Of a DNA stretch of 64,000 bases, positions 10,889 to 24,390 are shown piece after piece. Positions within the stretch are counted from its first letter, which is position 1. Each line of letters begins with the position of its first letter. This stretch comes from a phage. The stretch lies in the sequence record PZ452596.1. One strand, 5' to 3'. Under the pieces are notes generated by a model. The model saw nothing but the letters and a program-made list of their open reading frames with translations. It searched no databases and had not been told where the DNA came from. The position numbers were made by a program, and so were the translations under genes.

Positions 10889-11308
10889 TTATGCTAAAGC
10901 TGCTTCGCACCATTTTTTAATTTGGAATTCAGGAACTACCATGAACTGGCCTGCAAAAACAATATTGTAGAGCTTGACACCATCTTCTACCCAACGGTCC
11001 GAAATAAAACCAGCGACTTGATTCGTTGTCCATGGAGTTCCATCTGTTGCCGCCGCAATTGTGAATTTATGGTCTTTTACAACTAAAACTGAAGAACAAA
11101 GTTTCCATTTAAATGCGCTTTCTTCTGGCTCAATGAACTGACTTGAGACATAACCAATGTTACCATCAGCGTCACGAACTTTAACCTCGTTACGACCAAA
11201 AACTGGATCACTTACAGAAAGAACTTCAACCAGCTTTCCTGCAACTTTAGAACGAGAAGCAACGGATACATATACGTAATCACCAGTAGAGAGATTTACA
11301 ATATTCAT
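10889..11308 (-). CDS. hypothetical protein 139 aa, member of a 3-gene tandem paralog family (motB region)
   Basis: AAGGAA RBS; shares SASRSK..GKLVEV and ..WVEDG.KLYNIVF.G.F.VV motifs with the next two genes. Confidence 0.6.
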   Translation of the reverse strand: MNIVNLSTGDYVYVSVASRSKVAGKLVEVLSVSDPVFGRNEVKVRDADGNIGYVSSQFIEPEESAFKWKLCSSVLVVKDHKFTIAAATDGTPWTTNQVAGFISDRWVEDGVKLYNIVFAGQFMVVPEFQIKKWCEAALA

Positions 11309-11317
11309 AATAATTCC

Positions 11318-11791
11318 TTAAGCTTTACGAGGAGAAGCATAACGAGTGATTTCAGATTCTTCAACAACCCGGAAGTCACCTAAGAATACGATATTGTAGA
11401 GCTTTTCACCATCTTCAACCCATTGGTCTGTGATGAAGCCACACATCCTATCAGTTTTACTTGGACCAGCGAAATCATCAATATAATCGAATTCTTCATC
11501 AGTTACAAATTCAACGCCTTTACACAACGCCCATTTAAATTGTGCATTAGACTCAGTGGATTCAACTTCTTCAACAGAAGCAAAATGAGAGCTAACACGA
11601 GTTTCCAGAAATTTAGGACTTACGTAAGCGTACTGAGTTTCAGTTTTTCCAGAACTAGGAATGATTCGAACTTTAACTTCTTTAACACGACCAGTACCAT
11701 TAGTACGAAGTCCTACCACTTCAACTAGACGACCTGCAGCTTTAGAACGAGATGCAGACGATACACGCTTAATTTCACCGATAGTAATCAT
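11318..11791 (-). CDS. hypothetical protein 157 aa, paralog family member
   Basis: Internal ATG at 11791; MITIGEIKRVSSASRSKAAGRLVEV...; C-terminal ..QWVEDGEKLYNIVFLGDFRVV. Confidence 0.6.
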   Translation of the reverse strand: MITIGEIKRVSSASRSKAAGRLVEVVGLRTNGTGRVKEVKVRIIPSSGKTETQYAYVSPKFLETRVSSHFASVEEVESTESNAQFKWALCKGVEFVTDEEFDYIDDFAGPSKTDRMCGFITDQWVEDGEKLYNIVFLGDFRVVEESEITRYASPRKA

Positions 11792-11834
11792 AATTTTTCT
11801 CTCTTTGTTGTTAAGATTTATACTCCGCAGGACC

Positions 11835-11863
11835 ATTATACTCTGGTCCCAAGAGTTTGTAAA
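11835..11863 (-). promoter_or_regulatory. sigma70-like early promoter (TTTACA, 17 nt, TATAAT)
   Basis: TTTACAaactcttgggaccagagTATAAT upstream of 11791 gene. Confidence 0.5.
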
Positions 11864-12301
11864 TTAGCTTACACGAACATTAATCACTGCGCTGCGAGGA
11901 ACTACAGAGTACTCTCCAGCATGAACTACGTTCAGAAGTTCAACACCATCTTCAATCCACTGATCAGTCACCCATCCACCCACAGGATTCGCGAATGGAC
12001 GACGAATATAAACTGCCTTACACAGCAGATCAGTTGGATCTTCAGGTTTTTCAATTTCTGTCAATAGACTAAAATCTTTTTCATAAATAATAAGCGATGA
12101 TACCATTCCATAATAGTTTCTAATTTCAATATACATCATACCGATAAGAATTCCGCTATTAACACTAATAACAGTAAAAGGATATCCGCCAGTTAAACCA
12201 AGAAGTTCACAAAACTTATTATGAGCTGTATTAGACAGTACCGAAAAATTCTTAATTTCATCAAATTTTTTCAATTGATAAACAGCATTATTTTTAATCA
12301 T
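11864..12301 (-). CDS. hypothetical protein 145 aa, paralog family member
   Basis: C-terminal ..DQWIEDGVELLNVVHAGEYSVVP shared with neighbours. Confidence 0.6.
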   Translation of the reverse strand: MIKNNAVYQLKKFDEIKNFSVLSNTAHNKFCELLGLTGGYPFTVISVNSGILIGMMYIEIRNYYGMVSSLIIYEKDFSLLTEIEKPEDPTDLLCKAVYIRRPFANPVGGWVTDQWIEDGVELLNVVHAGEYSVVPRSAVINVRVS

Positions 12302-21140: not shown

Positions 21141-21341
21141 ATGGTACAAAAATTAATGGCACTTGTTAATGCCATCAAAGGTAATAAAAAGCGTATAGCT
21201 TTTACTATTTCTGCTATGGTAGGAATTTTACTCTGGAACTTTATTTTATCACCAATTGCAATTGCGCATGGTGTTAATATTCCAGTAGTTACTCTTGATA
21301 CATTTGTAGATTTAGCATTTGCTTTAGTTGGGTTAATTTAA
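21141..21341 (+). CDS. small two-helix membrane protein, 66 aa, on the opposite strand
   Basis: AGGAGG 4 nt before ATG; MVQKLMALVNAIKGNKKRIAFTISAMVGILLWNFILSPIAIAHG...; stop overlaps stop of gene 61. Confidence 0.5.
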   Translation: MVQKLMALVNAIKGNKKRIAFTISAMVGILLWNFILSPIAIAHGVNIPVVTLDTFVDLAFALVGLI

Positions 21342-22366
21342 ATCTTAGCATATTTAGATAACCGCATTTTAGCCATTAACCCCTGGGCAATATTATTTTT
21401 CATATATTCCATAATTTGTTCAGGGGTTGCACCTTCCTTTCTAATCATATCATTAACATCTTTTGATTTCCAGGGAGATTTATCCCAAAACATAACCCTT
21501 TCTCCTGCATCAACTAATTTAGTCATTCGTTTAATAGTGTCAGGGTGACGAGGTTCATTATCTAAAACCCACACACGTCTATCTTTAAATGGAACAACTT
21601 CTAGGTCTAATTGACCACCTGTAATAGCTATACCATTTTCAATAAAAAGTGAATCTATAGGTCCTTCTAGAACATATACATCACCATCTTTAACTCGTTC
21701 GACTCCATAGATTTTTGTTGCTTCAGGATAAGCTTTGATAGTGATATATTTTTGGGGAGCATCTTTCTTTAATGCACGTCCTTGAAAAGACTCGGCTTTT
21801 CCATTAGCATTATAAATTGGAATAACAAGACGAGGCTCAGGTATTTCCTTTTTATATGTTCCCGGTGCTATGCTATTAACTAATTTAGGCCATTCAGTTG
21901 TAAACCAAAGATATTTCCATTTATCCTTTGGAATACAACGAGCTTTTACATATTTTATAATTGCATGGTCTTCCTCCAGTTTATCTAATCGAACACATGA
22001 CGGAAGAGATTTAATTATTTTCTTCTCAGGTTGTTTAGGAAGTTCTTTAGGTTTTTCTACTGGACGACTTTTACCTTTTTCTTTTCTTATTTCAAAGATA
22101 TACTCACGATATAAATCAGGTTCAAACTCCTTTAAATATATTCCGATTGGTGCATGATAGTTACAGTTATAACAATGAATATTTCCTTCATTATTATCAC
22201 CATAATACCATCCACGAGCTTTATTCTGGTCGGTTTTTGAATCTCCACAAACAGGGCATCTAAACCGCAATTTAAAAGTTGAACTATTATTTACTTGTGT
22301 GAATTTAGGTAAATGAGCCAATGCACGATACGCAAACTCATTATCAATCCAAGGTATTGATGACAT
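21338..22366 (-). CDS. 61: DNA primase, 342 aa
   Basis: MSSIPWIDNEFAYRALAHLPKF...CPVCGDSK...CYNCNYH (zinc ribbon) plus TOPRIM region. Confidence 0.95.
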   Translation of the reverse strand: MSSIPWIDNEFAYRALAHLPKFTQVNNSSTFKLRFRCPVCGDSKTDQNKARGWYYGDNNEGNIHCYNCNYHAPIGIYLKEFEPDLYREYIFEIRKEKGKSRPVEKPKELPKQPEKKIIKSLPSCVRLDKLEEDHAIIKYVKARCIPKDKWKYLWFTTEWPKLVNSIAPGTYKKEIPEPRLVIPIYNANGKAESFQGRALKKDAPQKYITIKAYPEATKIYGVERVKDGDVYVLEGPIDSLFIENGIAITGGQLDLEVVPFKDRRVWVLDNEPRHPDTIKRMTKLVDAGERVMFWDKSPWKSKDVNDMIRKEGATPEQIMEYMKNNIAQGLMAKMRLSKYAKI

Positions 22367-22368
22367 TT

Positions 22369-22533
22369 TTACTCTTCTTTTTCTTTAGATTCCTCTTTTT
22401 TCTTTTTAGGAATCTGTTCAGGACCTTTATTTACTACAGCACCTGATGTTGTTCCAGTAGAGATATTTTCAGGATTACCACCTGAATCTCCAGCAACCAT
22501 ATCTTCTTTAATAAATTCTTTATATGTTTTCAT
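22369..22533 (-). CDS. hypothetical hydrophilic protein, 54 aa
   Basis: ATG at 22533 with AGAGGTTAAT RBS (copy of repeat upstream); below ORF-track cutoff. Confidence 0.4.
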   Translation of the reverse strand: MKTYKEFIKEDMVAGDSGGNPENISTGTTSGAVVNKGPEQIPKKKKEESKEKEE

Positions 22534-22579
22534 ATTAACCTCTATTCATAAAAGCATTAAAAATTTGGTCATCAATAGA
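22534..22579 (-). repeat. 46-bp direct repeat copy 1 (3' coding end plus RBS)
   Basis: attaaCctctattcataaaagcattaaaaatttggtcatcaataga; one mismatch to copy at 22892. Confidence 0.8.
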
Positions 22580-22891
22580 TGGAATAGCAACCTTTTCGGC
22601 ATCATTTAGCAAATCATTAATTTCATCAGATAGCATAACACATGTGCCTTTATTTCCTGTAATTGTTACTGCACAATTACGAACGTTTTCTTTATCAAAT
22701 TTTAGGTTAATATTTTCGTAGTGAAAATCCTTTAATGCCGAGTATATCTTTAAAATGAAATTGTCTTTTACTACAATAAACCCAACTTCACTATTAAAAC
22801 GTGGTTCATGGAAACTGTAATAAACCTTTTCATCTATGAAATCGTATGAAATTTTTTCCATTTTTAAATATGAAAATTCAGAACTATACAT
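22535..22891 (-). CDS. hypothetical protein 118 aa (61.1/61.2 region); C-terminus identical to next gene
   Basis: ATG at 22891 with AGAGATTAAT RBS; ends ...SIDDQIFNAFMNRG. Confidence 0.55.
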   Translation of the reverse strand: MYSSEFSYLKMEKISYDFIDEKVYYSFHEPRFNSEVGFIVVKDNFILKIYSALKDFHYENINLKFDKENVRNCAVTITGNKGTCVMLSDEINDLLNDAEKVAIPSIDDQIFNAFMNRG

Positions 22892-22937
22892 ATTAATCTC
22901 TATTCATAAAAGCATTAAAAATTTGGTCATCAATAGA
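22892..22937 (-). repeat. 46-bp direct repeat copy 2
   Basis: attaaTctctattcataaaagcattaaaaatttggtcatcaataga; encodes shared C-terminus SIDDQIFNAFMNR. Confidence 0.8.
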
Positions 22938-23525
22938 AATATTTACTTTAGACTGTTTTTCAGATGGCAATTCATATCCACATATTACAATTTTATGATC
23001 AATATCAAAATACACAGAAGCAATATGATTAATGATATTTTCAGTGAAGTCTAAATCAACATCAATATCTTTTTGACCACAGCCCAAAGGATAAATAATG
23101 CGAGTAATTCGATTATCTTTAACAAATATTCCACCGACATACTCTGTACTGCGTTTAAAGTCTACACGCCGACGAAATGAAAAATATTCAGGCTCTCTAT
23201 GAGCTCGGCTCATAGGACACAACGAGTAACTAGAATAAGAGATGTCAAATCCTACACCTTCAATATGAGCCAACGTGTCATGATTAAACCAATTATAATC
23301 GTACGCCAAATCCATTATATTGTAATATGTGAAAGGCACCGGATTAACATCATGTGTTGTACCTTTAAAATCTGCCCAGGCAACGATTTCGTTATCTTTA
23401 ACAATTACAAAAATTGTGCCAATAAGATATCCACGGTTATTTTCATCAGGCGTTATATTATAACATTGTGCATCAGGAAATTTACCGTATTTAAACGGTG
23501 GATTTTTGTGCATATAATAAATCAT
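22893..23525 (-). CDS. hypothetical protein 210 aa (61.2 position; possible anti-defence factor homolog)
   Basis: ATG at 23525 with AGGTGAATAAT RBS; ends ...ISIDDQIFNAFMNRD. Confidence 0.55.
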   Translation of the reverse strand: MIYYMHKNPPFKYGKFPDAQCYNITPDENNRGYLIGTIFVIVKDNEIVAWADFKGTTHDVNPVPFTYYNIMDLAYDYNWFNHDTLAHIEGVGFDISYSSYSLCPMSRAHREPEYFSFRRRVDFKRSTEYVGGIFVKDNRITRIIYPLGCGQKDIDVDLDFTENIINHIASVYFDIDHKIVICGYELPSEKQSKVNISIDDQIFNAFMNRD

Positions 23526-23526
23526 A

Positions 23527-23820
23527 TTATTCACCTGTGATTTCGGTTACGATATTTTTGTTATTAAAGTTTTTATCGCAATACAGAACATAATTATACT
23601 GCATTACACCACCAGACTTAAGCTGTTTTTGTACTTCAGCTTTCATTTCAGGACGATCACGCTCAACGATATTCATAATATCTGCTTCAATCTGAGTTTC
23701 AACCTCAGTCTGATCTGCAGTCATAGACCATTCGCACAAATCTTTATCATAACCCGCCATAGCAGGCTGAGCAGCACAAGAAGCCAAAGCAAAAATTGCA
23801 GCAAAAATAAATTTTTTCAT
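23527..23820 (-). CDS. secreted/periplasmic protein 97 aa, spackle-like (61.3 position)
   Basis: MKKFIFAAIFALASCAAQPAMAGYDKD (signal peptide); GAGGAG RBS; own early promoter. Confidence 0.55.
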   Translation of the reverse strand: MKKFIFAAIFALASCAAQPAMAGYDKDLCEWSMTADQTEVETQIEADIMNIVERDRPEMKAEVQKQLKSGGVMQYNYVLYCDKNFNNKNIVTEITGE

Positions 23821-23848
23821 GATAATCTCCTCAGTAGTTTATGTTTAT

Positions 23849-23877
23849 ATAGTATCTCAATTTCCAACAAAAGTAAA
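23849..23877 (-). promoter_or_regulatory. early promoter upstream of spackle-like gene
   Basis: TTTACTtttgttggaaattgagaTACTAT. Confidence 0.45.
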
Positions 23878-23880
23878 TAG

Positions 23881-24138
23881 TTATTTTAAAACTTCTGCGT
23901 AATCACATGTTACAAACTGTTTCTCTAGCTTGACGATTTTACGAAAGTATCTTTTACATTGACGAATCTGCCGCTTCGTAGGGCGCACAGCAAACTTAAT
24001 AAATTCTACTCGACCAAATGGAGGGCTTTCTTCCGCTGGAATATCTAACACCAATTCCCACGTATCCGCAATAAGTGCCTTGAATTGAGTATTTTTCCTG
24101 ACATTATACGGAGTAGGTTTAAATAAAACCGTATGCAT
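23881..24138 (-). CDS. hypothetical protein 85 aa (61.4 position)
   Basis: Internal ATG at 24138 with GGCGAGGGTAAT RBS, 2 nt after dmd stop. Confidence 0.5.
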   Translation of the reverse strand: MHTVLFKPTPYNVRKNTQFKALIADTWELVLDIPAEESPPFGRVEFIKFAVRPTKRQIRQCKRYFRKIVKLEKQFVTCDYAEVLK

Positions 24139-24139
24139 A

Positions 24140-24331
24140 TTACCCTCGCCAATCAGATTCAAAAACTTTTTTATCATTAACAAATGCTTTAACTAAAGCT
24201 TTATTAACTTCAGCGAGTTGTGAAGTGACCCATAGAACTTGGTCTCTATCAGACACATCCATAGTGATTTCTTTGGTAAACATATTACCATTTTCAAACC
24301 AGCCAATAAAAACAACCTTTGCTAATTCCAT
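24140..24331 (-). CDS. dmd: Dmd-like small protein, 63 aa
   Basis: MELAKVVFIGWFENGNMFTKEITM...; size and position directly downstream of gene 41; GGGGAG RBS; own early promoter. Confidence 0.7.
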   Translation of the reverse strand: MELAKVVFIGWFENGNMFTKEITMDVSDRDQVLWVTSQLAEVNKALVKAFVNDKKVFESDWRG

Positions 24332-24360
24332 AACAATCTCCCCATTTAACCAACAAGACT

Positions 24361-24390
24361 ACTATACCATAGTCTTGTCAGCTTGTAAAC
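24361..24390 (-). promoter_or_regulatory. T4-type early promoter upstream of dmd with inverted repeat around -10
   Basis: GTTTACaagctgaCAAGACTatggTATAGTAGTCTTG. Confidence 0.55.

Follow-up and report, generated by a model that had tools for sequence, protein, structure and literature searches.

The 49-nucleotide direct repeat that ties together neighboring genes in the anti-toxin island of phage RB27 is probably the common 3′ end of tandem AdfA-family paralogs, in which an old protein motif, tails homogenized between the genes and a joint for recombination coincide. Each copy of the block is made up of 13 codons of an invariant C-terminal motif (predicted to be helical), a variable last codon, and a coupling junction leading into the next gene. 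The two genes that share this ending are adfA and a 118-codon gene, referred to here as p118. The window used in this study is a stretch of 64,000 nucleotides (PZ452596.1) from phage RB27, and it is 100% identical to KM607000 (GenBank) and its RefSeq copy, NC_025448.

The repeat and the genes of the island

In the direction of transcription, the order of the genes is 41, dmd, 61.4/tifA, sp, adfA (210 aa), p118, 61.1 and 61 (primase), all on the minus strand. The features are as follows.

24389-24361, early-promoter-like site by dmd
24140..24331, minus strand, dmd (61.5), the first gene of the island
23881..24183, minus strand, 61.4, a tifA homolog (DUF7279), upstream member of the island; the usual ATG gives about 85 aa
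23527..23820, minus strand, sp (spackle; Pfam T4_Spackle, 1.5e-45), the left border of the variable slot
22893..23525, minus strand, adfA (T4 gene 61.2, anti-DarT factor A), 210 aa from ATG; PF23813, E=8e-136; phrog_3781
23534, minus strand, GTG, alternative start of adfA, giving 213 aa
22889..22937, minus strand, repeat copy at the adfA/p118 junction: last 14 adfA codons (SIDDQIFNAFMNRD), TAA, T and the p118 ATG; GAGA
22535..22891, minus strand, p118, 118 aa; phrog_4122, E=7e-73; lies between the two repeat copies
22531..22579, minus strand, repeat copy at the p118/61.1 junction: last 14 p118 codons (SIDDQIFNAFMNRG), TAA, T and the 61.1 ATG; GAGG
22369..22533, minus strand, 61.1, 54 aa; its ATG is formed by the final 3 nt of the distal repeat copy
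21338..22366, minus strand, gene 61 primase, the conserved right flank

The two copies of the repeat (22531-22579 and 22889-22937) are identical at 48 of 49 positions and are 358 nt apart from start to start. The original prediction described a 46-bp repeat with one mismatch (22534-22579 and 22892-22937); this segment is present and lies inside the 49-nt repeat, the added 3 nt being CAT (the ATG starts). It also held that the segment provides two proteins with the same C-terminus and the following gene with its ribosome binding site, and this is what we found, as the segment covers the last 14 residues of the 118-aa and 210/213-aa ORFs, the stop codon and the next start. On the minus strand, both copies read TCT ATT GAT GAC CAA ATT TTT AAT GCT TTT ATG AAT AGA G(G/A)T TAA T ATG, thus encoding SIDDQIFNAFMNR plus Gly or Asp, then TAA, a T, and the ATG of the next gene. 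The lone mismatch (C at 22539, T at 22897) falls on the second base of the last codon, which is GGT (Gly) in one copy and GAT (Asp) in the other on the coding strand. A Shine-Dalgarno-like GAGG or GAGA is located within the last two codons of the upstream gene, 5 nt before the ATG. In the sequence AGAGGT TAA T ATG, the stop and start codons are a few nucleotides apart and the GAGG is inside the upstream ORF, which is the layout of a translationally coupled junction; judged by sequence, the adfA/p118 and p118/61.1 junctions appear to be compact coupling junctions. The sp/adfA junction likewise reads TAATATG.

Apart from this 49-nt pair, a scan of the 64-kb window revealed no near-perfect repeat of this type. 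The remaining repeat families in the window are T4-type early promoters and GGGCC/GCCC terminator stem-loops, and their sequences are unlike that of the 49-nt repeat. The 40-nt core of the repeat occurs exactly twice with up to 3 mismatches permitted (0 expected in 100 shuffles), and beyond the 49-nt block the resemblance between the two loci falls to that of random sequence.

The view that the 61.x island encodes counter-defense factors agrees with the Pfam matches of dmd, tifA (61.4) and adfA (61.2) and with published work on T-even phages (PMC9391042, PMC11825919), in which dmd-tifA-adfA has been termed the ‘anti-TA island’ (PMC9391042). AdfA binds and neutralizes DarT1, and residue 164 (His), located in the C-terminal half, is decisive (PMC11825919). 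The full-length 210-aa gene of RB27 matched PF23813 with 450.5 bits (cut-off 27) over profile positions 1-210 of 211, and its product has a His aligned with residue 164 of RB69. The RB27 AdfA looks like a mosaic, with an N-terminal part (MIYYMHKNPPFKYGKFPDAQ...) resembling RB69 and the ‘MNKG’ allele group and a C-terminal part (EKQSKVNI...MNRD) that is T4-like; only 2 of 487 records are at least 99% identical to it.

Several other observations were made in and around the island. Copies of the window’s repeated early-promoter family are present at 23814-23857 and 24353-24390, directly upstream of sp and dmd, so the adfA-p118-61.1 run may be transcribed from two early promoters. Elsewhere in the window (10920-11982), three tandem segments, 71-79% identical and with spacings of 429 and 537 nt, look like another tandem paralogous gene set. 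In a metagenomic T4-like contig from a distant phage (L026, 371-991), gene 41 is separated from the dmd region by an inserted HNH endonuclease gene. The tail-bearing gene(s) of Gaprivervirus and IME341-like phages are directly followed by a 73-aa paralog of TifA (61.4, DUF7279-like) (L005 2859-3080; L006 2811-3032; L012-L017 2562-2783), and it appears to represent a second duplicated anti-toxin family of the island. RB69-like phages (L010 3079-3546, L011 2700-3167) carry a 155-aa protein, phrog_2086, whose C-terminal 40 residues are 61.1-like, so 61.1 would correspond to the tail of a longer protein in these phages. Finally, the T2 record (L001, LC348380; 1194-1472) contains an additional A close to the 3′ terminus of sp (AAAAATAATCATCGC compared to AAAAATATCATCGC in PP01), yielding a 92-aa Spackle protein ending in NKNNHR; this is either a frameshift or a sequencing error.

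p118 as a half-size relative of AdfA

The p118 gene is annotated as RB32ORF033c in RB51 and RB14, and p118 clusters are already placed under PF23813 by Pfam’s precomputed matches. In our search, p118 matched this family with 34.1 bits (cut-off 27; E=2.3e-8) over profile positions 113-211 only, and the match was lost once the last 14 residues were removed. Because the Pfam match depends on the tail, tail-less profiles were built. The tail-less p118 profile matched tail-less AdfA C-terminal halves with E=6.6e-9 and 22 bits (a single comparison), and hhalign gave a probability of 79% over 45 columns, centered on G-x-I-x-V-K-D-N-x-I. Pairwise BLAST of the p118 and AdfA bodies without the tail gave E=0.012, and identity outside the tail is about 34%. 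As similarity remains in the tail-less profiles, p118 is a real but old paralog of the C-terminal half of AdfA. Its 118 residues cover that half only, and the two-half plan of the ~210-aa AdfA is absent. When the N- and C-terminal halves of AdfA were compared with each other (tails removed), they matched with E=1.6e-5, hinting at an internal duplication in AdfA.

AlphaFold models of AdfA (pLDDT 68) and p118 (pLDDT 59), which are of low to moderate confidence, each place the tail in a C-terminal helix. Foldseek searches with these models returned nothing under E=0.09 from the PDB and the family’s own members only, with low TM-scores, from BFVD, yielding no fold assignment. Sequence searches for a solved structural relative, NCBIfam and PADLOC searches, and a search of the literature for RB32ORF033c all returned no match. 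Based on its homology and position, p118 is most likely another toxin- or defense-neutralizing factor of the anti-TA island.

The gene was found at 336 places in 333 records, i.e., essentially once per genome, and all examples fetched are located between sp and 61.1. Just upstream of the tail, there is a hypervariable patch of eight codons (22580-22603 in the window, p118 codons ~97-104), with haplotypes DAEKVAIP and DTENITAP among p118 genes that are otherwise 95-100% identical; nucleotide diversity is 0.12 in this patch versus 0.01-0.05 in the rest of the gene. Two p118-type genes appear disrupted, one frameshifted (phage 121/2022-2B, L024 1198-1497, leaving a 99-aa ORF) and the other truncated (TH44, L033 1552-1767, leaving a 71-aa ORF), which suggests that the gene may be dispensable or decaying in some lineages.

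The conserved C-terminal tail

Each gene lying between sp and 61.1 in the related loci fetched has the C-terminal sequence S/A/D/T-I/V/T-DDQIFNAFM-N/K-R/K-G/D and then a stop codon, and in all of these loci but one (L029) the stop is followed by T or A and then ATG. Across the Tevenvirinae, the sp-61.1 slot holds no fewer than three gene types with this tail:

AdfA, in Tequatrovirus and RB69-like phages
p118-type, in Tequatrovirus and Gaprivervirus (48-50% identity)
more distant proteins of metagenomic lineages P0023 and P0025, in the sp-61.1 slot
a third type, phrog_8539-like, 122-168 aa, in Gaprivervirus and IME341-like phages

When the DDQIFNAFM core was compared among Tequatrovirus, Gaprivervirus, RB69-like and IME341-like phages and the two metagenomic lineages, all differences were synonymous (GAT/GAC, CAA/CAG, ATT/ATA, GCT/GCC/GCA, TTT/TTC, AAT/AAC). 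As only synonymous variation occurs in the core, selection acts on the peptide, and the tail peptide is under strong purifying selection. The tail is an ancient motif, and no other part of the small AdfA-related family is as conserved. When 1.84 billion representative proteins were searched exhaustively with a profile, five true clusters only were identified, all of them tail-bearing, plus one spurious coiled-coil match, and a tail-centered profile searched against a 5.8-billion-protein index returned fragments only. The family thus seems to be small and confined to T4-like phages.

The body of the phrog_8539-like type has no significant similarity to AdfA or p118 (E from 1e-3 to 2e-2, 1-5 bits); the tail alone is shared with them at a significant level. 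Proteins of this type start with ...KNPNAQAY...LGYFLVDSDDRI (L005 2023-2496, L016 2123-2560), and the N-terminal half of AdfA reads KFPDAQCY...GTIFVIVKDNEI. We considered whether the Gaprivervirus pair is a ‘split AdfA’, i.e., an N-like gene and a C-like gene, each with a tail. This idea is unsupported, as the similarity is not significant (E from 0.005 to 0.08).

Gene layouts between sp and 61.1

Comparing the 61.1/61.2 region with that of other T-even phages, as the original prediction had suggested, revealed adfA-only, adfA+p118 and p118-only layouts. They were counted using junction-specific megablast queries, and the following numbers are approximate and include RefSeq/GenBank duplicates:

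sp-adfA-61.1, ~168 records (T4, RB69)
sp-adfA-p118-61.1, ~157 records (RB27, RB51, slur14)
sp-p118-61.1, ~138 records (T2, PP01)

When slur14 (adfA+p118) was aligned with three adfA-only phages, two alignments were obtained at 96-98% identity, and their ends overlapped by exactly the 49-nt block. The adfA-only and adfA+p118 alleles are therefore set apart by the p118 body together with one copy of the repeat, a total of 358 nt, as would result from recombination between the repeat copies. In adfA-only phages the last codon is GGT, the same as at the p118/61.1 junction, which is consistent with such recombination. In p118-only phages, the adfA body is absent from the sp stop codon to 11 nt before the p118 start, and a 13-nt remnant of the block, AGAGGTTAGTATG, is present upstream of p118. 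The best 25 records contained no tandem p118-p118 junction, which unequal crossing-over would yield as its reciprocal product. The layout data are compatible with either loss or gain of the 358-nt unit.

Identity of the two copies and alternative explanations

Conservation of the peptide raises the question of how much of the DNA identity between the two copies it can explain. One explanation invokes constraint alone, in which an invariant peptide, biased codons, and a final ~15 nt fixed by the ribosome binding site, stop and start produce the identity with no recombination between the copies. This is consistent with the invariance of the peptide across genera, with the strong codon bias (ATT 76%, GAT 78%, TTT 75%, AAT 75%), and with the junction AGAGGTTAATATG being kept upstream of p118 even in phages without adfA. 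However, in paralogs of this age synonymous sites would be expected to be randomized as far as codon bias allows, yet both copies share even minority codons: the second Asp is encoded by GAC (22% usage) and Arg by AGA (11%). The chance of all 13 tail codons matching, computed from the window’s own codon usage, is 4.6e-4. Nor are the synonymous sites frozen: over the 39 nt from Ser to Arg, p118 orthologs show 6-9 nt differences between Tequatrovirus and Gaprivervirus, whereas paralog tails within one genome show 0-4 in Tequatrovirus (0-1 in several strains) and 1-7 in Gaprivervirus. The tail reads MNR or MKR depending on the genus, with both paralogs alike, and p118 carries the Ser-Val of the upstream gene in some Gaprivervirus (L006, L031) but not in others (L005, L032). 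Synonymous identity beyond codon bias together with this likeness within lineages suggests that the tails have been homogenized, and the likeliest reading of the tail identity is recombinational homogenization or gene conversion laid over an old motif. The case for gene conversion is built on ~13 codons from two or three independent lineages, and part of the concerted pattern could also arise, with no recombination, if third-position G+C had shifted across a whole genus. Homogenization is not universal, as phages with the ‘MNKG’ adfA allele, which include many adfA+p118 phages, show 3-4 differences from the p118 tail, a point in favor of constraint. Constraint alone accounts for much of the identity but not for the full synonymous identity or the lineage pattern, and as a complete explanation we regard it as unlikely.

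Alternatively, p118 could be a foreign ORF that was recently inserted as a mobile cassette (PeSL- or homing-like), with a 49-nt target duplicated upon insertion or with terminal repeats of its own, and the shared C-terminus would be a by-product of the insertion. The repeat does flank the p118 body exactly and bounds its presence or absence, and repeat-flanked ORFan cassettes are known in T4-type phages (PMC2839356). However, the p118 body is homologous to the C-terminal half of AdfA even without the tail, p118-type genes of 25-50% identity in other genera and metagenomes are already tailed and in the sp-61.1 slot, and p118 occurs about once per genome, always in this slot among the fetched examples. 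Promoter, terminator and endonuclease are all absent in and beside the repeat. A recent insertion, and with it the by-product view of the shared C-terminus, is highly improbable. Still another explanation is that the 49 nt are kept as a nucleic-acid signal (RNA or DNA), such as a hairpin masking the ribosome binding site, or the site of a regulator or nuclease. The minimum free energy fold in Tequatrovirus does pair UCUAUU with AAUAGA, burying part of the Shine-Dalgarno sequence, and the TAATATG stop-start junction recurs at sp/adfA. Yet shuffled sequences fold just as well (z = -0.02 and -0.31), the pairing is missing in Gaprivervirus, where the codons differ, and the synonymous-only variation points to the peptide as the object of selection, so that a nucleic-acid element is extremely improbable. 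The folding covered the RB27 copies with their flanks and the Gaprivervirus and RB69-like junctions, and an RNA structure was rejected, as z ranged from -0.3 to +1.0 and the hairpin was not conserved. Lastly, the worry attached to the original prediction, namely that an assembly or sequencing artifact had duplicated a segment, was a general possibility and nothing else spoke for it. The window is 100% identical to two RB27 records, the adfA-p118 junction is found in ~157 phage records from many laboratories and platforms, and both flanked genes are intact ORFs with PHROG families of their own; there is practically no chance of an artifact.

Proposed explanation and significance

We favor the explanation in which the 49-nt block is the shared 3′ end of tandem AdfA-family paralogs, and in which three layers would be superimposed. 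At the oldest level, the tail is a family signature kept by selection on the protein, ending AdfA, the p118-type and the third gene type. On top of this, homologous recombination or gene conversion, acting both within the tandem pair and among phages infecting the same cell, would have homogenized the tails, which would be why both RB27 copies are identical at every synonymous site. Finally, the block would serve as portable homology, so that recombination between copies could remove or add one 358-nt unit (p118 plus one copy), its loss giving the T4-type layout adfA-61.1. Since each cassette has the same tail and junction, an incoming cassette would preserve the ribosome binding site and start of the downstream gene. 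The original prediction had taken the repeat for a recombination footprint. The part of it that stands is that the block is a likely recombination site, judging from the repeat-bounded 358-nt unit and the three coexisting layouts; it is not the mere scar of one recent duplication or insertion, as p118 is an old paralog and the tail is ancient and selected.

A more far-reaching reading is that the constant 13-residue tail is a portable module, such as a docking or dimerization helix that serves one shared partner, carried by the divergent inhibitor bodies of AdfA, the p118-type and the phrog_8539-type, with its DNA doubling as a recombination linker, with sp-61.1 acting as an integrase-free cassette site. 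We put this forward tentatively and think it rather unlikely. If it were true, T-even populations would swap, stack and drop counter-defense modules with downstream expression intact, and p118, the only family member in T2, would be an unrecognized toxin inhibitor.

AdfA is among the few characterized phage inhibitors of a DNA ADP-ribosylating toxin, and the dmd-tifA-adfA island is a model for the stacking of anti-toxin factors by phages. The ~295 Tequatrovirus records, T2 included, that have a half-size AdfA paralog offer a concrete candidate for a further inhibitor, and within the family it is the strictly conserved tail where mutations would be of most interest. The repeat also provides a natural example of how ~50 bp of shared coding sequence may allow a counter-defense gene to be added or dropped with the translation signals of the next gene undisturbed.

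Comparison with known systems

Among characterized proteins, the closest is AdfA of T4 and RB69 (61.2, PF23813). The 210-aa gene of RB27 is AdfA itself, and p118 shares with the family the C-terminal half, the VKDN-x-I hairpin motif, the tail and the same slot in the anti-TA island. However, p118 is half the size, lacks the N-terminal half, is only about 34% identical outside the tail, and has Asn where AdfA has the decisive His164 (in a weak alignment). T2 carries p118 only, although it has been described as being without an adfA homolog (PMC11825919).

The pattern in the tails resembles concerted evolution, in that a sharply bounded, near-identical tract is found in otherwise diverged neighbors and paralog tails are closer within lineages than orthologs are between them. 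It differs in that the tract is only 49 nt long and overlaps a selected peptide and a translation signal, so that conversion is not cleanly separable from constraint.

The internal-protein (IP) genes of T-even phages have a short conserved coding leader in common. The exchange of these variable genes takes place within a pair of small loci (Repoila et al. 1994, cited in PMC2839356). The RB27 slot is similar in being a small locus with alternative divergent genes, one short constant element, and shuffling that is confined there. However, the constant part of the IP genes is N-terminal (a capsid-targeting leader), and the associated repeats are promoter- or stem-loop-like, whereas in the RB27 slot the constant part is a C-terminal tail plus the junction to the next gene.

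In the dmd-tifA region of T4, amplifications and deletions mediated by 6-10 bp of microhomology have been observed as laboratory events under selection (PMC9391042). These took place in the same island, and there, too, recombination between short direct repeats altered the copy number of a counter-defense gene. In RB27, however, the homology is 49 bp long and part of the genes themselves, and the variation is a standing polymorphism in natural phages.

PeSL (promoter-early plus stem-loop) repeats mediate modular shuffling in T4-type phages (PMC2839356, PMC4122927). As with these repeats, short repeated blocks in a hyperplastic region flank facultative genes, and homologous recombination would lead to the gain, loss or exchange of small ORFs. 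A PeSL-type promoter/stem-loop cassette was considered for the RB27 block itself and rejected, as the block consists of coding sequence, ribosome binding site and start, whereas PeSL elements are intergenic promoters and terminators. It has no promoter- or terminator-like site or stem-loop in either copy, and it is present in two copies only in the 64-kb window, both in this slot. RB27 and its relatives represent fairly ordinary phage gene shuffling by mechanisms of known kinds, with no new principle involved; among the features specific to this case, the shared homology lies in a coding tail that runs straight into the next gene’s start signals.
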